From an uncultured archaeon (GTDB lineage: Archaea; Aenigmatarchaeota; Aenigmatarchaeia; CG10238-14; SCSR01): a DNA stretch of 32,288 nt. The stretch is from the NCBI GenBank assembly GCA_964471045.1, contig CAYYER010000001.1, positions 1 through 32,288 on the forward strand, given 5' to 3'. Position 1 is the first letter of the stretch. The number at the start of each line of letters is the position of its first letter. A program made the position numbers and the translations under genes. This document shows, in pieces, positions 1 to 10,543 of this stretch. A model generated the notes under the pieces. It saw nothing but the letters and a program-made list of their open reading frames with translations, was not told the DNA's origin and did not search any database.

Positions 1-1
1 G

Positions 2-67
2 AAGAAAGTTGAGCAAAAGAGAGTTGAAAGCTTTGAAGACTGGAATGCTCATTCTGGAATTAACTAA
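2..67 (+). CDS. 3' end of an unidentified protein gene (partial, runs off the window start)
   Basis: Open frame from position 2 to TAA at 65-67 (..KKVEQKRVESFEDWNAHSGIN*). Purine-rich like other + strand genes. Too short to identify. Confidence 0.25.
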   Translation, partial: KKVEQKRVESFEDWNAHSGIN

Positions 68-80
68 AAAATGACCCTTA

Positions 81-602
81 CTATTTCCTCAGATAAATCT
101 TCTTCTTTAAATATTTCAAGTATTCTTTATATTTTTCCTTCTTGAGTATTCCGTCTCTTAAGGCTGAGTCCAATACAGCTTTTACCACGGAAAACCTTAG
201 AGCGTTTCTACTTTTCTGGTCTATTTCCATTTGTTTCTCTACCAATTTTAAGGCCAAATCGCACGTATTCAAACTTACTTCTATGCAATAATTCAATTCA
301 TCAGGACTTTTTGAGATACAGTAGGAGAGGTAAGAAATCATCCTAAGATTATTCAGCTTCTTCAACCTTTCCTTAACTTTTTTTGGATTTGTTTTCTGGT
401 AATCTTCAGCAATCTCTTTCTTCATTCTCCCAACAGCTTCGAAAAATGTTGAAAGCTGTTTGAGATTAGAAGTTGCGATAACATTCCTTTTAACTATTAG
501 GCCTAAAGGTGTGACAATTTCTTGACTATAAACAGTTGGAACTTTAGTTTTACTAACCCTCTTGTACAAGTCTCTAATTAATTCTTCGAAAACTTTTGTC
601 AT
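81..602 (-). CDS. hypothetical helical protein (173 aa), last gene of the 3530->81 operon
   Basis: ATG at 602-600 overlaps the TGA of the upstream gene (ATGA at 599-602). K/E-rich coding composition. No motif I recognise. Confidence 0.6.
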   Translation of the reverse strand: MTKVFEELIRDLYKRVSKTKVPTVYSQEIVTPLGLIVKRNVIATSNLKQLSTFFEAVGRMKKEIAEDYQKTNPKKVKERLKKLNNLRMISYLSYCISKSPDELNYCIEVSLNTCDLALKLVEKQMEIDQKSRNALRFSVVKAVLDSALRDGILKKEKYKEYLKYLKKKIYLRK

Positions 603-1291
603 CTATCTTCACCAAAAATTTTGGTATTGGTTTTTTTAAACTTCTCCGAATCTAAAACCGAAATTTCTTCTAGACCTATAGCTAAAGGTGCGTGAGGGGT
701 TGGATAGAATGAAATTATAGTCAAAAGATTCTCTAAGTCTTTCATCATATTTAACGCTACCTTCCTGCTCTTCGGTATATCCTTACCCCTAATTTCATTT
801 TCTCCGTAAACTGCTTCCGAAAATCTTAGGGAGTCATAGAGATGTAGAAGCTCTCCTGGATAAACATAGGTTGCACTCAAGGTTTCGTTTCCTAGCTTTA
901 TTCTAAGATTGTGTAAAGGCACTAAAGCTGGGTTTAAGCCTTCTCTTAAATCCTCCCTTACTCTCATCACATCTCTCTCTTTATCTATCAAAATTTCGAT
1001 CAACCTCCAATTTTTTTCTCCCCTTCCGTACCTATCGTCTGGACCAGACGAAAAATATCTTTGCAAGGTAGTTTTTGCACTCCTCAAAACAGAGTGAATT
1101 TTTGAAATTATATCAAAGGTATAATGTTTTTCGGGATATGAAATAAGGAGTAAATCGAGCGAGTAATCCTTTCTTATAGAAGCTCTTAATTTATTTATGT
1201 ATTTTTCGCCGAATAATCCATACTCTATTTTCTCTTTCACTTTTCCCAAATCGAAAAGTCTCCTCACGAACTCTTTAAGCTTTTCAGACAT
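599..1291 (-). CDS. hypothetical protein (230 aa)
   Basis: ATG at 1291-1289, 33 nt downstream of the preceding gene on the same strand and translationally coupled to the 173-aa gene. No recognisable motif. Confidence 0.6.
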   Translation of the reverse strand: MSEKLKEFVRRLFDLGKVKEKIEYGLFGEKYINKLRASIRKDYSLDLLLISYPEKHYTFDIISKIHSVLRSAKTTLQRYFSSGPDDRYGRGEKNWRLIEILIDKERDVMRVREDLREGLNPALVPLHNLRIKLGNETLSATYVYPGELLHLYDSLRFSEAVYGENEIRGKDIPKSRKVALNMMKDLENLLTIISFYPTPHAPLAIGLEEISVLDSEKFKKTNTKIFGEDR

Positions 1292-1324
1292 ATCCTTAAG
1301 ATAGAAAAGAAAAATATTAATTTC

Positions 1325-2458
1325 TTATCCTTTTCTCCCTTCTTTTTCTTTCTCCTTCAAAACTCTGGCTAGCTCGCGAATAAGCCTTCTCACGTATTCA
1401 CGCATTTCATAAACTTCCTTATCGGGAATTTGGTCTATTTTCTTTTGGTCCGCTAATTTCTTCAAATCTTCTATTCGCTTCCAAACATCCCAGTAATAGC
1501 CCTCTACAAGCTTTTTATCGATGAACTCTCGCTTGAAAGCCAAAGGAATCTCTTCCTCTTTCTTAGGCATTTTCTTTAGGGTTTTTAAAGCAGTAATAGC
1601 TGCCTTATAAAGCACTTCGTGCGTCCTCTCCAAAATCTTTTCTCTTTTCCTTAGCTCTAAAGCATTGAGCAAGCTAAACATTTTATTAACAAATTTCTCC
1701 GCTTTATCGATCCACTCGTCTACAAAAGCTCCGCTCACATCCATTAGCTCTTTATGCTCAATCTTTTTCCTGATTTCGATTATTTCTCTCAGCCATTCTG
1801 CATACTCTTGCTCTAGAATACCTGGCTCAACCAAGTATTTCTTAACTTCTTGGTAGGCTTTACTAGGAACAGGAGGAGCCAGACCCATGAACATTAGGAC
1901 AGCTTGCGCAGTATTCAGCATAGCATAATAGCAATCCTCAGCAAGCATTAAGAGCTTAACAGTCTTTGCTCTCATTAGCTTCTTGGGAGCTCCTTCCATG
2001 TAGCTTTCTATAGCTTCTCTTGTAGCAGGAATTCTCCCCATCTCCAAGAGTTTTTTTATTGGCGTGAAGAAGCCTGTATCATAAATCGCAACTCCCTCTT
2101 TTATAAAGTTATAAATTATTGGATGGCAAACTCTTGCATAATCCCAGAATTCGGTTAGAGTATAGCTAGGCTGAACAGAGATTCTTTCGGAAATTTTCTT
2201 GGCCATTTGCTCCAAATCCTCGTCGAGCTTTTCTTGAAATTCTGGAGTTATTTTAAAGCTAGCATCGTCTATGACAACAAAAACATCTACGTCGCTCTTC
2301 GGCTTAAACTCTTCTCTTGCGACAGAACCCATCATCACTATGCACTTGACATACTTTCCATACTTGTCCAAAACCTTCTTCGCAAATTTTTTTACCTTTT
2401 CCAAAACTTCCTCCTTCGTCTCAAGCTTCTCTTCCTTCTTTTTTTCTTTTTTTGCCAT
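1325..2458 (-). CDS. Pol-beta-superfamily nucleotidyltransferase fused to a HEPN-like helical domain (KNTase-like architecture), 377 aa
   Basis: NT signature G-S-x10-D-x-D (MMGSVAREEFKPKSDVDVFVVIDD). Helical C-terminal half carries an R-x4-H motif (RKKIEH, codons at 1754-1771). K/E-rich N- and C-terminal extensions. Its ATG directly follows the TAG of the upstream gene. Confidence 0.7.
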   Translation of the reverse strand: MAKKEKKKEEKLETKEEVLEKVKKFAKKVLDKYGKYVKCIVMMGSVAREEFKPKSDVDVFVVIDDASFKITPEFQEKLDEDLEQMAKKISERISVQPSYTLTEFWDYARVCHPIIYNFIKEGVAIYDTGFFTPIKKLLEMGRIPATREAIESYMEGAPKKLMRAKTVKLLMLAEDCYYAMLNTAQAVLMFMGLAPPVPSKAYQEVKKYLVEPGILEQEYAEWLREIIEIRKKIEHKELMDVSGAFVDEWIDKAEKFVNKMFSLLNALELRKREKILERTHEVLYKAAITALKTLKKMPKKEEEIPLAFKREFIDKKLVEGYYWDVWKRIEDLKKLADQKKIDQIPDKEVYEMREYVRRLIRELARVLKEKEKEGRKG

Positions 2459-2680
2459 CTAACCACTTCTTTTAACTTCAACCCTCAAAGGACAGAACGA
2501 AACTTCTTCACACTTTGGAATGTATTCCTCTCCCTGCTTATGAGCGTGCTCTTTTACCAAAGAAAAAACATAAGGGTCTCTTTCTTTCAACCTACTCAAG
2601 TCAGAAGTTTCTACTCTGTTAGCTGGCAACAAGCATCTTCCCTGCTTGTCCATAAAATTCCCTTTACACTTGTATTCCAT
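2459..2680 (-). CDS. small 4-Cys protein (73 aa from ATG 2680; GTG at 2689 would give 76 aa), possible metal-binding
   Basis: MEYKCKGNFMDKQGRC...IPKCEEVSFCP has two Cys pairs at the two ends plus HAH. Sits between the two NT-HEPN genes with a 1-nt gap upstream and a 0-nt gap downstream. GTGAGTAGG lies immediately 5' of the ATG. Confidence 0.5.
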   Translation of the reverse strand: MEYKCKGNFMDKQGRCLLPANRVETSDLSRLKERDPYVFSLVKEHAHKQGEEYIPKCEEVSFCPLRVEVKRSG

Positions 2681-2681
2681 C

Positions 2682-3530
2682 CTACTCACCTTCCATCTCT
2701 TCCAAAATACCTTTTGGCAACAATTTTTTCATTCTTTCAATTATTTCTTTTGCAAGCTTTAGTGCTTTTTCCAAGTAAGCTGGACTTACTTCCTTAACTA
2801 TTTTATGGTCAATATCCTTCCAGAGCTTATCCAACTCCTCAAACTTTTCTATAAATTCTGGTTCTAATTTTTCCTCCTTCACGAGCTTTTCCAAGAAGCC
2901 TGGGATAGCCTTTTGGTCTGGCTGAGCCTTATAATAATGCATTATTACAGCTTGGCAAGCATCGGTTGCCGCATACCTCAACTCAAAAATCATCGATTTT
3001 AGGTCAAGCTCGATTTTCTTGACTCTTGCTTCGCTAGCCCTTGCCTTTAGCTTTACAGCTTCTTCGCTAGGCGGTATCAAACCCATCTGGAGCATTCTTT
3101 GAACGGGCTTAATAAAACCTGTATCATAAATAGGCAGACCATATCTTAAGAAATTTATTAGCTCTGGGGAGCCAAGCTTTACCCAATTCCAGAATTCTGT
3201 AAGAGTGGTTGTTTGAATGTGCAAATCCTTAAGCTCTTGAGCGATTAGATAAAGCTGAGTATTAACCTTTTGCAAATCCTCCGAGCTTTTTGTGGCCGTA
3301 TCATCCAGAATGACCCAAACATCTATGTCGCTACCCTCCTTCATCATTCCCCTAGCTGCAGAACCGAAGATTAAAACTGATTTAATTATCTCGCCGTACT
3401 GCTTTCTAGCTTCATTGGTAAAAGCTATGACTTTTGAATAAACTTCCTTAGGAGGTTTTTTTACTTCCTTAACTTCTTCGACCAATTTCTCAGCTTTTTC
3501 CAATTCCTCTTCTAGCTTTTCCAAAGCCAT
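2682..3530 (-). CDS. Pol-beta-superfamily nucleotidyltransferase fused to a HEPN-like domain with degenerate R-x4-H motif, 282 aa (paralog of 1325-2458)
   Basis: IFGSAARGMMKEGSDIDVWVILDD NT signature. Shares LTEFW, IYDTGF and MG.IP blocks with the 377-aa protein. The position aligned to the HEPN Arg is Trp (WKDIDH). Confidence 0.7.
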   Translation of the reverse strand: MALEKLEEELEKAEKLVEEVKEVKKPPKEVYSKVIAFTNEARKQYGEIIKSVLIFGSAARGMMKEGSDIDVWVILDDTATKSSEDLQKVNTQLYLIAQELKDLHIQTTTLTEFWNWVKLGSPELINFLRYGLPIYDTGFIKPVQRMLQMGLIPPSEEAVKLKARASEARVKKIELDLKSMIFELRYAATDACQAVIMHYYKAQPDQKAIPGFLEKLVKEEKLEPEFIEKFEELDKLWKDIDHKIVKEVSPAYLEKALKLAKEIIERMKKLLPKGILEEMEGE

Positions 3531-3550: not shown

Positions 3551-3558
3551 TATTTAAA
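3551..3558 (-). promoter_or_regulatory. putative TATA box (TTTAAATA on minus strand) for the 3530->81 operon
   Basis: Centre lies about 25 nt upstream of ATG 3530, the geometry expected for a leaderless archaeal transcript. Confidence 0.4.
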
Positions 3559-3594: not shown

Positions 3595-4128
3595 TTAGAG
3601 CAAGTAAGGTAGAACTGGATTTAGCAACTGCAAAAGAATAAGATTAAAGATGAAGTTTACTGGGATGGAAATGAAATCCATCTCCCCAAAGCCTTCGTAC
3701 TTCGCAAAATTTTTAAAAGCTAGGACTATCAGCATGATCCAAACCAAGCTCAGGCCCAAGCCTGAAAGGAAATAGATTAAGAGAACTGCTATAAAATCCC
3801 TGGGATTTCCCGGTCCTATGGAAGAAGGGTTGAAGCTCGGATTGTAAACCCATCTATCTCCCAAAATTGCATTGACTATACCTGGAGCTATCAGGAGAAA
3901 AATACAAAAATAAATGCCCGGAAGCAAACCATACTTTAGAGTAACTAGAATGGTTGAAATGGTGGTAAACTCTATTCCTCCTATGGTAGTCGGATTAAGC
4001 CTTCCTATTATGCATTTCTCTATCAAAACGAGCATGCAAGCTATCAAGAAGACTTGCTTAGTCAAAAAGACTAATGCACAAGCTAGGAAAGAAATAGCCA
4101 GGGCTATTTTTGGTTTTGCATCTTCCAT
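3595..4128 (-). CDS. integral membrane protein (177 aa, about 5-6 hydrophobic segments), function unknown
   Basis: Long hydrophobic runs (ALAISFLACALVFL, IACMLVLI, LVWIMLIVLAF, FIFNLILLQLL). ATG at 4128. Confidence 0.55.
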   Translation of the reverse strand: MEDAKPKIALAISFLACALVFLTKQVFLIACMLVLIEKCIIGRLNPTTIGGIEFTTISTILVTLKYGLLPGIYFCIFLLIAPGIVNAILGDRWVYNPSFNPSSIGPGNPRDFIAVLLIYFLSGLGLSLVWIMLIVLAFKNFAKYEGFGEMDFISIPVNFIFNLILLQLLNPVLPYLL

Positions 4129-4195
4129 GGTTAATTTAAAATTTAGTTAAGCTTAAGATTTAAAATTTAATTTTTCAAAAGACCAAAATTTTAAA

Positions 4196-5158
4196 ATGAT
4201 TAAGGTTGGGGTCAATGCTTCTCGCCGCTTGCTCTGGAACTATCCTTTGAGTAAAAGGTTTAAGATTCTCGACATGTTCCTAGAAATTTTTGAGAGATTT
4301 AAAAGGAGGGAAGAGTGGTACGTCGAGCTTGGAATAAGTGCATTCCCAGAAGTGTTTGGAGCTAGCGGAAAGGGGATTAAAAAGCAGGTTGCCCTCAAGA
4401 TCAGAAGAGTTGCCGATAAAAGAGGTTTTAAGCTAACCATTCACGCCCCCCATATAAACGAGAAGCTAATGCCAGATTTAAATCTGTGCTCTTTAAGTAA
4501 GGAGGAAAGGAAGACTTCTCTAAACTATGCGCTTTCGACCATAGATTTGGCTTACTTGCTAGAAGCCGAGTTTGTAACTTTCCATCCAGGCTACATTTAT
4601 AAGGGTTTTAGTCCGGGAAAGGAGAGATTTTTATCCAACTACTTGCATGAAGCAAAAAAATATTTGATTGAAAGCTTAAAAAAACTTGCAAGCCATGCAG
4701 AAAAGAATGGTTTAACCATTACCATAGAAAACATGGAACCAAGGATAGACGTTGGCTATCTATTAACCCATCCCTCTGAAACCAAAGAAGTGGTTAAGGC
4801 TGTTGGGAATAAGTTTTTGAAAATAACCTACGATGTAGCTCATGCTGCACTGGCTGCAAGCTATTACAAGTTTGACCAGGTTAAAAATTTTATGGAAATA
4901 GCCGACCAGGTTGTAAAGCTCCACATTCACGACAACCTTTGCAAGCCAGGACTTTATGGAAGAGTGGATTATGCAGAAGGAATAGGAGACTTGCATCTGG
5001 TTCCGTTAATAGGGAAAGGAAAGGTTCCGAACGAAGCGATTTTAAAAGTTGCGGGAAGGAAAAAGCTCGTGATCTATGAAGTCACTCCTTTAGAAGTTGA
5101 GTTCAGGCTTAGCCTGAAAAAATTAAGAGAAATTTTTGGCATTCCAGACAGCTTGTAG
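4196..5158 (+). CDS. sugar phosphate isomerase/epimerase family protein (xylose isomerase-like TIM barrel)
   Basis: Ordered motifs typical of the family: IHAPH, VTFHPGY, ITIENME, YDVAHA, LHIHDN, VIYEV. Confidence 0.7.
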   Translation: MIKVGVNASRRLLWNYPLSKRFKILDMFLEIFERFKRREEWYVELGISAFPEVFGASGKGIKKQVALKIRRVADKRGFKLTIHAPHINEKLMPDLNLCSLSKEERKTSLNYALSTIDLAYLLEAEFVTFHPGYIYKGFSPGKERFLSNYLHEAKKYLIESLKKLASHAEKNGLTITIENMEPRIDVGYLLTHPSETKEVVKAVGNKFLKITYDVAHAALAASYYKFDQVKNFMEIADQVVKLHIHDNLCKPGLYGRVDYAEGIGDLHLVPLIGKGKVPNEAILKVAGRKKLVIYEVTPLEVEFRLSLKKLREIFGIPDSL

Positions 5159-6949
5159 TTATCTCAACTCTTCTTTCTTCCATTTTTCAGGGGCAACTCT
5201 TTCGGTAGCAGCCCTTCCCAGGAAAGTATGCTCCTCTTCAGGCACATAAACTAAACCTTTCAAAGGGTCTAGAGCGTGCTCGAATATTATTGCTCTTTGC
5301 CTTTCCAAGGAAGCTATTTCGCCAGTAGCAAAACCGTAGAATTCCATCGGTAGTTTTTCGGGCGGTACATCCTTTTCCAAAAATTCAACTATTTTCCTTA
5401 AAGCGATTATGGATTGCTTGATAGGGTCTGGACCTCCTCCTCTCTCAAAAATTATGTAGTAATCTTTCTCATCCTTCCCAAAACCTTTCTTTCTCAGCTT
5501 ATACATTAGCTTGTAAAGGTACAATTGTTGCTCCGAACCCAAAGGAATTGGTATGTGAGCAGGGGCTAGAGGGGAGGGATAGCCTACATGAAGAACGATT
5601 ACAAATTTTCCTGCCTCCTCTGGTAAGCAATCTATTACAACCTCTGGGTCTAATCTTATGCTTAACATATGCTCAAAATCCATCGCTACAGCTAAGCAGA
5701 AGAAACCGGCTTCTTCATTGACTTGCTTAGCCAGATAATACATTTGAATTGGATTCGGTAAGCGGAGCCATTCTTCTATGCCTCTATGAGCCATCGGAGT
5801 TTCTAGAACTAAAGGCATGTTATACTTCTTTATTATCTTTTTTAAATCGTAATAAGTTTTCTTTGGATTCTTATCTTGGTTCAAATGCCCCCATATGTAT
5901 TTAGCAGAAACTGCAGGAACCCATAGATAGCTGTACTTCCTAAAATTCTCATCGTCTATACTTTTCTCCTTTATTCCTTTTTCTCTCAGCCATTCTTCCA
6001 CGCTTTTTTTCTCGCTCCTAGCAAAAAATTCTATGGTTGCATTTACTATGTTATTCCAGAGAGGATCATTAGTTCTTTCCATCCATTTTGCGATGAAATA
6101 GTAAGCTATTCTTTCAGGACCATAATGCAGAGTTCTTGATTGAACATAGTTTAAGAGAGCTGTTCTTATATCGGAGACCAAAACATTTAAACTTCTCTTA
6201 ATTTGTTCATTGACTATTTTTTTCTTGTCAGGTTCCAAACTCTCATAATCTTTTCCAGTTTCTATCTCCCATGTTTCGACTCTATCTAAGATTCTTCCTC
6301 TTAGAATTTCTGCTAAAGGTCTTCCAATAACTTCAATCCATATAAAATCTTGGGGATTGAGACCGCTTGCTTTAAAAGCTCCTTTTATATCCTCTACGCT
6401 TATCCCTTTCTTCTTTTTTAGCCATACATCATATACACATTCAGAAATATCCTCAACCCCTCCTCCTAGAGCCCAATCCAGTAAATCTTTATTTTCTTCT
6501 AAGAATTCTCTTAAAGGATTTCCGAAGAAATCGACTAAAGCTGCTGGCTGTAGATGCCTTTCGAGTAATAAAAATGGGTGAGATTCAGAAGAATGGATTA
6601 AAACATACTCGCTCTTTATTTCTCCAGATTTTTCAAGAATCTCTCTTAGTCTTTCATGCCCAAACTTATAATCCGTTTCTATAGCAGAATCCAACTCAGC
6701 AACCTCAACTCCAAAAGCCCGAGTTTCAGAATGGATTCCATACCTTACCCCTAACTTCCTTATCTTCTCCATATCTTCTTTCAAGTTTGGTGCCTTAAAC
6801 TCAGAGACAGATTCCAAATCTATCTGAACAAACTGCACGCCTTTAGTTATACAATACTCAGCTTTCTTCGCCAATCCTGCATACTGAATTTTTTCGGCTT
6901 CGGGAACTGCCCCGAATATTCCGCTTGAAACTCCGATCAAATAAGCCAT
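5159..6949 (-). CDS. 596-aa protein with remote xylose-isomerase/EndoIV-like TIM-barrel residue pattern interrupted by a large insertion; function unknown
   Basis: Ordered IHSE, LIHSSES, LVLETP, AMDFEHM, VLHVGYP..AHIP, IIFERGGG resembles the metal-ligand order of the TIM-barrel family. About 250 residues separate the second and third motif. Probable ATG at 6949, 1 nt after the stop of the upstream gene. The track's TTG at 6967 is less likely. Confidence 0.5.
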   Translation of the reverse strand: MAYLIGVSSGIFGAVPEAEKIQYAGLAKKAEYCITKGVQFVQIDLESVSEFKAPNLKEDMEKIRKLGVRYGIHSETRAFGVEVAELDSAIETDYKFGHERLREILEKSGEIKSEYVLIHSSESHPFLLLERHLQPAALVDFFGNPLREFLEENKDLLDWALGGGVEDISECVYDVWLKKKKGISVEDIKGAFKASGLNPQDFIWIEVIGRPLAEILRGRILDRVETWEIETGKDYESLEPDKKKIVNEQIKRSLNVLVSDIRTALLNYVQSRTLHYGPERIAYYFIAKWMERTNDPLWNNIVNATIEFFARSEKKSVEEWLREKGIKEKSIDDENFRKYSYLWVPAVSAKYIWGHLNQDKNPKKTYYDLKKIIKKYNMPLVLETPMAHRGIEEWLRLPNPIQMYYLAKQVNEEAGFFCLAVAMDFEHMLSIRLDPEVVIDCLPEEAGKFVIVLHVGYPSPLAPAHIPIPLGSEQQLYLYKLMYKLRKKGFGKDEKDYYIIFERGGGPDPIKQSIIALRKIVEFLEKDVPPEKLPMEFYGFATGEIASLERQRAIIFEHALDPLKGLVYVPEEEHTFLGRAATERVAPEKWKKEELR

Positions 6950-6950
6950 A

Positions 6951-8753
6951 CTAACCGGGCACCCCAAAACTTTTCTTCAAGTATCTAACTATTCTTGCAA
7001 AATTCCCTCCCGTCTCCCTTTGATGATATTTTGCAAGCCTATGGTGCATGGCAAACTCGTAAGGTCCGACTGCTCTAAAGAATCGAAGCTCTAGGCCAAA
7101 AGTTGCGAAGAACTTTCCTATACCCAGTCTAATTTTCTTACCTAATTCCTTAAACCTTTTCCTAGATTCCTCAGCTTTCTTAAGCCTCTCTTCTAACTTT
7201 CTTTCTTTCTCTTCTTTTTCTATCTCTTCGAGAGTTTTGTAAACTTCCTTATACCCTTCTTCGACTATTTTTTCTATCGAGAGAATTTTCCCCTCTTTTT
7301 CCCCCATCTCTCCAAGCATCCTGCTTATGTACTGTTCCAACTGCTTATCCCTTGCTATAAGCTCCAAACAATTAACGAGTATCAAATTCTGAGTTCTGGT
7401 TGCGGCATACAAATTCTCTATCCACAAATCTTCGACTTGAGCACCATTGGGCAATCTTAGAACAGTTCTTTCCATCGGAATGCAAATAAAAGTGAAGTAT
7501 GGACTAAAAACCCAGGGTTCTTTTCCGCCCAGAGCTGGCAAAGATTTCCTGAATTGGTCCAAAAGCATTTCCCTAGCTTTATACAAGTCGTAGGCTGTTA
7601 TCTTAACTCCATATTCTTTTTCTATTATTGGGACAAATGCTCTGACAACCCTATCTATGGAAGGTTCTTGAGGCAATCCAGAAACTTTTTCGTCCCATTT
7701 TTCCCCCAAATGCTTTTTAATCTCCAAAATCTCGCTCCTAGTAAAGCCTGCTTTTGAAGCTGGAATTTGGTCGAAGTATTCTCTAGTAATCTTATACTTT
7801 TCAGCAACCTGGAATGGCTTCCATGCCCAAAGGGTGACCTTATCCACAGAAATTGCTTGGGCGTCTGGCCTCATATGAGCAGCCTTAAGTATGCCCGCTC
7901 TTCCTTCTGGCATGCTAAGAGCTTCTGTAATCATCTTATACCTTGCTATAGTTGGCTTTAGCATTTCTCTATATTCTTCTATGGAAGCTTTCCTCATTTC
8001 AACCACGCTTAAAATTCTTCTATACCTTTGCTTAACGTTTTCCTTGAACATCTCTCTCCATTCTTTATAAAGCTTGTTTTTAGTGGCTAGAACAACGCCT
8101 TGAGCCTCAGAAACCCCATATTTTTTTGCAATTTCTTTTGGGTCTGTATCCTCGTCGGTTAGCTTCATGAAATCGGCTATGATGGTAGGCCACCTTGGGG
8201 CAATTAGCTTTAAGGCTATTCCTTCCCCTGTATGCACATCAACCTGATCTATAAAAATTGCTTTAAGAGTTTGTTCCCCCTCTCTCACAAGCTTTTCTCC
8301 CTCTTCCTTCTTTCCTTCTTTAATCAGCCTCTTTCCCTTTTCGATTTTAAGAAAATGATTCATGTATTCCCTATACTTTCTCAAATCGTGCAAGGCTAGC
8401 TCAAAATCTGAAATGGCTCTCGCAACGCTAGCTAAACCTTCTTTAATCCTTGCTTCCAAAGCTTCTTTTTGCCTCAGAGTCATCTCGTAGTATTCCCTAA
8501 AGACAGGGGATACAAAAATGCTTTCTTCTATCTTTGCGGTAAAGAATCCCCATTTGGGTAGCTGAAAGGAGAGAGCATAAAAAACTTCGCTAACTTTTCC
8601 GAGCGAGGAAGTAAAATCTAGGAGCATTTCTCCCTCGTAGGGAACAGCATTTATAACTTCTCCTGGCTCGAACCTAAGCTTCGCTTCAGGTCTTTCTGGA
8701 GGAATAACAAACCATGGTCTTGGTGCAGGAAATTCTGGAATGATCACTGGCAT
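6951..8753 (-). CDS. 600-aa soluble coiled-coil-rich orphan protein
   Basis: Probable ATG at 8753 (MPVIIPEFPAPRPW...); the track start 8789 is a TTG. Pro-rich N-terminus, heptad-like K/E-rich stretches near residues 100-180 and in the C-terminal 80 aa. No TM segment, no NTPase or nuclease motif I recognise. Confidence 0.6.
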   Translation of the reverse strand: MPVIIPEFPAPRPWFVIPPERPEAKLRFEPGEVINAVPYEGEMLLDFTSSLGKVSEVFYALSFQLPKWGFFTAKIEESIFVSPVFREYYEMTLRQKEALEARIKEGLASVARAISDFELALHDLRKYREYMNHFLKIEKGKRLIKEGKKEEGEKLVREGEQTLKAIFIDQVDVHTGEGIALKLIAPRWPTIIADFMKLTDEDTDPKEIAKKYGVSEAQGVVLATKNKLYKEWREMFKENVKQRYRRILSVVEMRKASIEEYREMLKPTIARYKMITEALSMPEGRAGILKAAHMRPDAQAISVDKVTLWAWKPFQVAEKYKITREYFDQIPASKAGFTRSEILEIKKHLGEKWDEKVSGLPQEPSIDRVVRAFVPIIEKEYGVKITAYDLYKAREMLLDQFRKSLPALGGKEPWVFSPYFTFICIPMERTVLRLPNGAQVEDLWIENLYAATRTQNLILVNCLELIARDKQLEQYISRMLGEMGEKEGKILSIEKIVEEGYKEVYKTLEEIEKEEKERKLEERLKKAEESRKRFKELGKKIRLGIGKFFATFGLELRFFRAVGPYEFAMHHRLAKYHQRETGGNFARIVRYLKKSFGVPG

Positions 8754-8792
8754 AATATAAATTTGTTTTTTTGAAATCTTATTATTCAAGAT

Positions 8793-10292: not shown

Positions 10293-10543
10293 TGGGAATA
10301 TTTTCGAGGATAAAGGGCATCTTTAGAAGGAAGAAAGAGGAGCCAGTAGAAGAATTGCCTGAGATTCCGGAGGAAAAGCCCTTGGAAAGCTTGGAGCCGG
10401 CAACCCTGGAAAATCTAAAGGCAAAAATGGATTTGATCCTAACCCAAATGGAAAGCTTAAAGATCCAGAATGAAACCTTGATGGAAAGACTGAAAATTAT
10501 AGAAAAACTGTTGATAGAAATAAGAAAGCTAGCGGTTAGCTGA
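10292..10543 (+). CDS. 83-aa protein: N-terminal basic amphipathic helix (MGIFSRIKGIFRRKK), acidic Pro-rich linker, C-terminal coiled coil
   Basis: Translation from the track. GAGAGGGT SD-like motif 7 nt upstream. Hydrophobic residues at positions 3, 4, 7, 10 and 11 with flanking R/K. Heptad-like L/I/M spacing in LKAKMDLILTQMESLKIQNETLMERLKIIEKLLIEIRKL. Confidence 0.6.
   Translation: MGIFSRIKGIFRRKKEEPVEELPEIPEEKPLESLEPATLENLKAKMDLILTQMESLKIQNETLMERLKIIEKLLIEIRKLAVS

Follow-up and report, generated by a model that had tools for sequence, protein, structure and literature searches.

Locus and gene layout

The window analysed here is the whole stretch of 32,288 nt of the Aenigmatarchaeota contig CAYYER010000001.1 (assembly GCA_964471045.1), taken from a metagenome-assembled genome (MAG) of about 0.6 Mb of this DPANN phylum; all coordinates are given on its forward strand. 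The subject is a pair of neighbouring minus-strand genes, designated A and B, each of which encodes a nucleotidyltransferase (NT) domain of the Pol-beta type followed by HEPN-like helical sequence. Gene A (2682..3530, minus strand) encodes a 282-aa protein with one HEPN-like domain and is the derived, faster-evolving paralogue; gene B (1325..2458, minus strand) encodes a 377-aa protein in which a HEPN domain with an R-x4-H motif is followed by a second, degenerate HEPN-like repeat. The two genes are separated by the gene of a 4-Cys miniprotein (2459..2680, minus strand; 73 aa from ATG, or 76 aa from a GTG at 2689). Behind B follow two open reading frames (ORFs) that are strain-specific ORFans outside the conserved unit, namely orf230 (599..1291, minus strand; 230 aa) and orf173 (81..602, minus strand; 173 aa).

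The intergenic gaps, as read from the sequence, amount to 1, 0 and 33 nt from A through the miniprotein gene and B to orf230, and orf173 is joined to orf230 by a 4-nt ATGA overlap. A TATA box (TTTAAATA, 3551..3558, minus strand) is located about 24 nt before the ATG of gene A and is likely the promoter of a leaderless transcript of A, the miniprotein gene and B. In most of the 12 relatives examined, a TATA-like box is found about 25 nt before the start of A, right after the stop codon of the 602-aa gene described below. The first-pass annotation had described five minus-strand ORFs with spacings of -4 to 33 nt behind the TATA box at 3551-3558, two of them paralogous NT + HEPN-like fusions with a 4-Cys miniprotein between them, in a layout unlike that of a standard toxin-antitoxin (TA) system. 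This description was confirmed by the sequence and, for the fusions, by the comparisons given in the next section. Points that it had missed are the 612- and 602-aa upstream partners, the second HEPN-like repeat of B and the existence of known fused proteins consisting of a minimal nucleotidyltransferase (MNT) and a HEPN domain.

Domain structure of A and B

A and B are paralogous proteins that share 32% identity across 247 residues (E 3e-29), and A can be aligned with B throughout the HEPN-like domain. Both were matched by Pfam NTP_transf_2 above its gathering cut-off of 21 bits (A: E 1.4e-8, 35.5 bits; B: E 2.6e-9, 37.8 bits). Support for the helical part is weak at the level of sequence: Pfam HEPN was matched by A with E 2.5e-4 and 21.6 bits against a cut-off of 22 bits, and within the family only two of 13 A-type sequences were matched by HEPN, and one of 13 B-type sequences by HepT-like.

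The fold of B was modelled with AlphaFold2 (AF2; pLDDT 84.5, pTM 0.62), and the model was compared with solved structures by Foldseek. KNTase/ANT(4') was retrieved first (E 6e-5), followed by AAD(9), HalB, GlnE, the HEPN protein AF_0298 and HepT/MntA chains. The HEPN matches comprised AF_0298 (2hsb, TMt 0.79), HEPN toxin chains (7ae9) and the helical domain of KNTase; the GlnE domains were matched with E 3e-3 (1v4a) and E 9e-3 (3k7d). KNTase was also the top match of the family profile (E 4.8e-10), ANT enzymes were again the best solved relatives in a single-sequence search, and relatives carry the name "predicted nucleotidyltransferase / UPF0332 family" in IMG. Because sequence profile, AF2 fold and Foldseek all point to KNTase-type enzymes, A and B are assigned, with the model as guide, the two-domain KNTase-like architecture, in which a Pol-beta NT domain precedes an up-down four-helix bundle of the HEPN type.

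The NT domain of B (2054..2401, minus strand; about aa 20-135) contains G44-S45, S55-D56-x-D58 and D64-D65 as invariant columns, and the motifs G-S ... S-D-x-D ... D-D-T are kept in all 61 sequences of A, B and the single-copy homologues of other orders (singletons). An insertion resembling a Zn ribbon (CPNC ... CPKC) lies inside the NT domain of one B orthologue (L034:7250-8464, genome G036), and in several other B orthologues about 18 residues (KITIKTPDGKEEKINLIS) are inserted at this site.

The first HEPN-like domain of B (1661..2041, minus strand; about aa 140-266) bears the motif R230-K-K-I-E-H235 at nt 1754-1771. The RK..EH residues are invariant across the window's order; of 19 singletons from other orders, 18 retain R, 16 retain H, and all retain K and E, so that RNase chemistry may not be the conserved role of the R-x4-H helix. 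In A the corresponding motif is W237-K-D-I-D-H242 (2805..2822, minus strand), with Trp at the position of the Arg of the HEPN R-x4-H; W237, K238 and H242 are invariant in the 13 A-type sequences. The residue two positions after the His, which is the Tyr serving as the AMPylation site in R-x4-H-x-Y, is E in B and I in A.

The remainder of B (1328..1660, minus strand; about aa 267-377), which is absent from A, was recognised as a second, degenerate HEPN-like repeat with K-K-L-A-D-Q at the R-x4-H position. Alignment of B 172-266 with B 275-369 by hhalign gave a probability of 98.4% (E 6.4e-15), and the AF2 model places four further helices in this segment. From these comparisons the domain make-up is read as NT-HEPN-HEPN' for B and NT-HEPN for A.

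Distribution and evolution of the pair

The B profile was matched in 149 of 151 genomes sampled across Aenigmatarchaeota, including 88 of 89 high-quality genomes. Within the window's order A and B are adjacent in 39 of 41 genomes. The identity of B to its orthologues ranges from 58 to 98% in all of 19 loci but the outlier L034 (48%), and that of A from 57 to 96%. Beyond the genus the 602- and 612-aa neighbours drop to roughly 30-50% identity, whereas B evolves more slowly. Outside the order mostly one copy is present, and the 20 loci fetched from other orders each encode a B-type protein of 380-500 aa.

In a maximum-likelihood tree the A sequences form one clade (support 99/98) on a long stem outside the clade of B and the singletons, and B nests among the single-copy genes (B + singletons, 94/86). 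From this topology, together with the single B-type copy of other orders, B is identified as the ancestral gene, orthologous to the phylum-wide single-copy gene, and A as a derived, shortened and faster-evolving duplicate, which occurs only in the window's order and in one further family (G070). Contig C10 of genome G006 (L041:7178-9014) carries another, very divergent NT-HEPN pair, in which the order is reversed and the B-like gene comes before the A-like one; the A-like member of this pair has neither the G-S nor the D-x-D motif and is presumably inactive. Genomes of family f12 likewise contain a second B-like copy.

The conserved unit is the pair of A and B rather than a set of five genes. 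The first-pass annotation had proposed that all five ORFs form one functional module, possibly with a defence or regulatory role. The first part of this proposal is unsupported because the five genes do not occur together in 40 relatives or in 80 further loci. As to the second part, the NT-HEPN gene is a near-universal and syntenic core gene, and a tblastn search with B against phage and plasmid collections returned no relative; this pattern is the opposite of that of a defence island.

The same data bear on the reading of the locus as a fused type VII TA or abortive-infection module of the FhepTA or HepT/MntA kind. Under this reading B would contain, in its HEPN domain, an RNase toxin curbed by AMPylation from its own NT domain or from that of A, and the Cys protein and the orphans would act as accessory sensors. 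Such a system would be in keeping with the scores against NCBIfam MntA (29 and 23.5 bits) and PADLOC PDC-S09 (E 7e-13 and 4e-12), with the invariance of R-x4-H in B across the order and with the existence of fused MNT-HEPN TA proteins of 276 aa (PMC13000451); moreover, a cluster of such DPANN genes was termed "most probably a toxin-antitoxin module" with respect to its origin by Makarova et al. 2019 (PMC6393860). The MntA scores are, however, far under the NCBIfam cut-off of 60 bits, the AMPylation-site Tyr of R-x4-H-x-Y is absent from both proteins, A lacks the Arg, the His is lost in three of the 19 singletons, and the orphans are not conserved alongside the pair. Presence in 149 of 151 genomes, synteny and slow evolution are unlike any TA or defence system, and the absence of relatives from the phage and plasmid collections argues in the same direction. 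On this sequence evidence a TA or defence reading of the NT-HEPN pair is not supported, and we regard a present-day TA function as very improbable.

The copy number also bears on an interpretation of the pair as a protein-modifying switch. GlnE consists of two homologous NT + HEPN-like modules with opposite activities. By analogy, one paralogue would add a nucleoside monophosphate (NMP) to a partner protein (the 602-aa protein, the 612-aa protein or the 184/171 pair of the neighbourhood described below) and the other would remove it, the HEPN-like domains providing a docking surface. GlnE domains are among the Foldseek matches (1v4a, 3k7d) and the catalytic motifs are kept in both A and B. Protein-modifying enzymes have furthermore been named as a common fate of domesticated MNT-HEPN modules (PMC3710099). 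Against this stands the single copy of most orders, which rules out a two-enzyme switch as the ancestral function; the matches to GlnE are weak, and no target residue can be named. Such a switch is therefore judged unlikely.

Conserved neighbourhood and TIM-barrel enzymes

Upstream of the pair lie two large genes that accompany the NT-HEPN gene in the phylum. The first large gene of the row 612-602-A-B encodes a conserved 612-aa protein of unknown type (6951..8789, minus strand). It is followed by a gene for a 602-aa protein (5159..6967, minus strand), a putative divergent TIM-barrel metal enzyme resembling MJ1311 and endonuclease IV, which is the conserved upstream neighbour of the NT-HEPN gene or genes. 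The gene order in the window's order is 171<-184 next to 612->602->A->B, and that of other orders is 612->602->single B (20 loci). The 602-aa family was found in 150 of 151 genomes. In the 142 genomes in which the best matches to both B and the 602-aa protein were listed, B lies no more than 5 kb from the 602-aa gene in at least 103, of which 101 have the 602-aa gene on the strand of B and upstream of it.

Neither the 602-aa nor the 612-aa protein was matched in Pfam, and the idea that the two are paralogues was rejected on direct comparison. A profile built from 18 orthologues of the 602-aa protein retrieved the TIM barrel MJ1311 (3wqo) with E 8.7e-6, as well as AP endonuclease and endonuclease IV as weak matches. 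An insertion of about 220 residues separates the N- and C-terminal halves, which match the barrel in the correct sequence. Across the phylum H79, H125, H361, E389, D430, H460, H471 and E508 are invariant; this His-rich set presumably resembles the metal ligands of endonuclease IV more than those of sugar isomerases, and is taken as a lead only.

B is followed on its own strand, after 14-76 nt, by the gene of a canonical AP_endonuc_2 barrel of 265 aa in at least 15 of about 105 non-redundant loci (L030, L035, L039, L057, L075, L076, L081, L084, L090, L091, L094, L098, L101, L106 and L117). This barrel has MJ1311 as its best match in the PDB (E 4e-13); in NCBIfam it neighbours sugar epimerases and CbiR, a phosphodiesterase of cobamide remodelling (E 1e-12, under the cut-off). 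It constitutes a second link, and the NT-HEPN gene is thus tied twice, independently, to MJ1311/endonuclease IV-like TIM barrels.

In the window the 602-aa gene and A are separated by a lineage-specific insertion (3595..5158), which carries the genes of a 177-aa multi-pass membrane protein (minus strand) and of a 320-aa canonical xylose-isomerase-like TIM barrel (plus strand; Pfam AP_endonuc_2, E 2.3e-30). The insertion is present only in the window and in its 93%-identical relative G004; elsewhere A directly follows the 602-aa gene. In the window, the DNA in front of A is almost identical to the spacer between the 602-aa gene and A in two genomes of the same genus, and the promoter of A appears to have moved together with A. 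Since the TATA-like box before A is kept in relatives and the promoter moved with the gene, A and B are read as a short transcription unit of their own, placed directly behind the 612- and 602-aa genes.

The barrels give weight to an explanation of the pair as a small-molecule nucleotidyltransferase in the strict KNTase/ANT/Lnu sense. In this case a dimer of A and B would adenylylate a hydroxyl group of a sugar- or aminocyclitol-like metabolite, or of a cofactor nucleotide loop, that is isomerised or hydrolysed by the xylose-isomerase-like barrels. The best matches by sequence and by fold (ANT(4')/KNTase, AAD(9), LinB) agree with such an activity, as does the twofold tie to AP_endonuc_2 barrels with sugar-epimerase and CbiR neighbours. 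The ANT scores are nevertheless far under their cut-offs (31.8 bits against 350), the genomes are tiny and have little metabolism, and the retained R-x4-H is not a feature of KNTase (PMC3710099). An identity of about 80% across a whole family would, moreover, fit a macromolecular partner better than a metabolite. Taken together, we consider this explanation rather unlikely, although it is a more serious candidate than the TA module or the protein-modifying switch.

Miniprotein, A-B junction and the segment behind B

Apart from the window, the miniprotein was found in two other genomes only, both of close relatives (97% and 54% BLAST identity), and on one short metagenome contig; only two matching clusters were present among 5.8 billion. 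In the alignment of the four sequences C5, C16 and C57 are present in all and C63 in three, and the motif CLLPANR..TSD is conserved. No match was obtained in Pfam, NCBIfam, PHROG or PADLOC. By this pattern of conservation the miniprotein is taken to be the product of a real gene of very narrow range, inserted between A and B.

The gap between A and B is at most 50 nt in 52 of 65 loci, often with an overlap. Small ORFs are inserted at this junction in 11 of the 65 loci and are of at least six unrelated kinds, two of which have 4 Cys. An ORF of 105 aa with 4 Cys lies between A and B in L056 (2148-2465) and L058, and nine other loci hold unrelated small ORFs. The 105-aa ORF has an N-terminal C-K-x-N-Y-x4-G-x-C and shares the pattern C-K-x-N-[FY]-x4-G-x-C with the miniprotein; homology between the two is nonetheless unsupported (BLAST E 0.02, hhalign probability 1%). 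In 12 of the 65 loci (e.g., L100:1785-3833, L108, L113 and L121) A and B are in the same frame and are split by one or two stop codons (TAA, TAG or TGA) plus 0-21 nt. Programmed read-through from A across the stop into B was considered and dropped, 12 of 65 being no higher than the one in three given by chance.

The two ORFs behind B, described as orphans in the first-pass annotation, remain so: no homologue was found in families or in large protein libraries. Both are absent from the 40 relatives and from the 80 further loci, and both are without a match in Pfam, NCBIfam, PHROGs and PADLOC; orf173 found itself alone among 5.8 billion clusters, and orf230 itself alone among 1.84 billion representatives. 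The window can be aligned with G004, at 93% nt identity, from position 10453 down to 1330, and the match breaks off where B ends. The genes that follow B in G004 are located on other contigs of the window's own assembly, and the window contig ends 80 nt beyond orf173. The G+C content of the two ORFs is 0.33-0.36, compared with 0.39 for A and B. Because their in-frame codon usage is host-like, orf230 and orf173 look like real genes, and ORFs of such length would not be expected by chance in DNA of about 35% G+C. They are accordingly classed, from their sequences, as strain-specific ORFans. At the start of the window (1-66, plus strand) the apparent 3' end of a plus-strand ORF (...KKVEQKRVESFEDWNAHSGIN*) converges on orf173, and the assembly break at this point coincides with the edge of the strain-specific segment.

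The 33-nt spacer between B and orf230 contains a T5 + T4 tract and a TATA-like TTAATATT, so that co-transcription of orf230 and orf173 with A and B is not assured. In 29 of 110 loci of the window's family (e.g., L024:6625-7119) a DUF488 gene lies behind B, on the same strand and at a distance of 0-2.5 kb; in the window's genome DUF488 is on another contig (C69). Since the content of the interval between B and DUF488 varies, the space behind B is considered a variable insertion spot for strain-specific genes.

These findings decide against an operon of five genes that work together, with the miniprotein, orf230 and orf173 as functional parts of the NT-HEPN machine. Tight spacing (1, 0, 33 and -4 nt) behind one clear TATA box, the host-like codon usage of the orphans and the occurrence of small ORFs at the A-B junction in other loci, two kinds of them with 4 Cys, would all be compatible with such an operon. 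The 230- and 173-aa genes, however, have no homologue anywhere and begin exactly where homology to the 93%-identical G004 ends; a T-rich tract and a TATA-like box stand between B and orf230; the small ORFs that other lineages have at the junction bear no relation to one another; and nothing lies between A and B in 52 of 65 loci. A functional operon of all five genes is thus extremely improbable.

Proposed function

The explanation preferred here joins the conserved A-B pair, its domains and its history with a proposed mode of working. The part that concerns identity and evolution is held with high confidence and the explanation as a whole with moderate confidence; the specific acceptor is proposed only tentatively. 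According to the proposal, A and B would form a heteromer in the manner of the KNTase dimer, in which the helical domain of one chain completes the nucleotide/acceptor site of the other. In lineages that possess B only, the site would be completed by the two HEPN repeats of B or by a homodimer. The enzyme would transfer NMP to a hydroxyl group of a substrate made or trimmed by the neighbouring TIM-barrel enzymes, which, judged by their sequences, look like metallo-phosphodiesterases. As acceptor, RNA or another nucleotide-bearing 3' end is given a cautious preference, in a scheme in which the end would be cut or healed and then extended.

Several observations weigh against this explanation. 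In about one-quarter of the genomes (families f12, f14 and f20) the listed B copy is located away from the 602-aa gene. The phosphodiesterase reading of the 602-aa protein is based on weak profile matches and on a presumed resemblance of its ligand pattern to that of endonuclease IV, and most AP_endonuc_2 barrels are isomerases or epimerases of sugars. Many Pol-beta NTs have a third catalytic carboxylate; its counterpart was not identified in the family, a Gln being conserved where it was looked for. The replacement of the His of R-x4-H in three of the 19 singletons, and of the Arg in one, indicates that a HEPN RNase role is not strictly conserved, which weakens the "cut" step. The heteromer is suggested only by adjacency, by coupling and by the KNTase precedent; AF2 prediction on the natural in-frame A-stop-B read-through sequences (12 loci) yielded no confident arrangement of the two chains (pLDDT 74.9, pTM 0.44). 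Replacement of a missing CCA-adding enzyme by A and B was also considered and was rejected: 38 of 41 relatives, the window's own genome among them, have the canonical cca gene (TIGR03671 above its cut-off).

In its most far-reaching form the proposal states that NT-HEPN-HEPN' (with A where present) and the MJ1311/endonuclease IV-like enzymes constitute an essential, lineage-specific machine for the processing of RNA or cofactor 3' ends. This is doubtful at present; if true, a former TA pair would have become a housekeeping enzyme acting on nucleic acids, a defining trait of Aenigmatarchaeota and perhaps of DPANN generally. Independently of the acceptor, a gene found in 149 of 151 very small DPANN genomes is almost certainly important, and B, at about 80% amino-acid identity across a family, evolves far more slowly than its neighbours. 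The ancestral protein appears to have consisted of an NT domain and two HEPN-like repeats, and one order divided the job between two paralogues with different HEPN motifs. The family is a clear example of the domestication of a TA-type module into a core gene, and it cautions against the default annotation of MNT-HEPN genes as TA or defence genes.

Comparison with known systems

The first-pass annotation had treated the fusion of MNT and HEPN as unusual. It was right in that the arrangement is not a standard TA system; fusions of this kind are, however, already known from KNTase, GlnE, FhepTA and the DPANN cluster cls.004259. A literature search for a description specific to Aenigmatarchaeota returned nothing relevant.

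With KNTase ANT(4')-Ia (1KNY, 6UN8) and the ANT/AAD/Lnu enzymes, A and B share the order of an N-terminal Pol-beta NT domain and a HEPN-derived helical domain; the KNTase/ANT enzymes are themselves dimers with sites shared between the subunits. Identity to these enzymes is only about 15%, and the family scores are far under the cut-offs (ANT_4p_I, 31.8 bits against 350; ANT_9, 27.1 bits against 340). In contrast to them, B has an extra HEPN-like repeat and R-x4-H, and the genes belong to the chromosomal archaeal core and not to resistance. In MNT-fused proteins the HEPN domain is usually inactive and domesticated as a substrate-binding module, as in KNTase and GlnE (Anantharaman et al. 2013, PMC3710099).

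FhepTA and HepT-MntA likewise combine MNT and HEPN, in FhepTA within one polypeptide of 276 aa, and the R-x4-H of B is shared with them; fused MNT-HEPN TA proteins of this type have been described on Shewanella mobile elements (Yao et al. 2026, NAR, PMC13000451). Unlike these, A and B are without the motif Tyr, A is without the Arg, and the genes are non-mobile, near-universal and syntenic. GlnE resembles the pair in having two homologous NT + HEPN-like modules, as a domesticated MNT-HEPN protein, and in its weak fold matches. It differs as one long bacterial polypeptide with a known target, whereas two short archaeal proteins, and in most lineages one, are found here; at the level of sequence no match to GlnE was obtained. 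The scores against HalB of the Hailong system (20-23 bits against 190) and the CBASS cyclase (13-15 bits against 200) are far under the cut-offs, and the universal distribution and the absence of an effector-like neighbour set the A-B pair apart from both.

The closest counterpart is the DPANN-specific cluster cls.004259 of Makarova, Wolf and Koonin (2019, Biochem Soc Trans 47:389, PMC6393860), with the prototype NEQ050 described as "MNT fused to HEPN". It was reported from 36 of 67 DPANN genomes, typically in a house-keeping context, with an unusual conservation that suggests an important role, and in 2019 it figured among the "dark/gray matter" families given priority. The fusion of MNT to HEPN, the occurrence in DPANN and the house-keeping, non-mobile context are the same as for A and B, and the A/B family has probably been flagged already as this cluster, to judge by the description. 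The A/B paralogue pair, the second HEPN-like repeat, the replacement of Arg by Trp in A, and the link to the 612-aa protein and to MJ1311/endonuclease IV-like barrels are not contained in that paper; of these, the division into two paralogues, the additional HEPN repeat of B and the twofold link to the barrels appear to be new.

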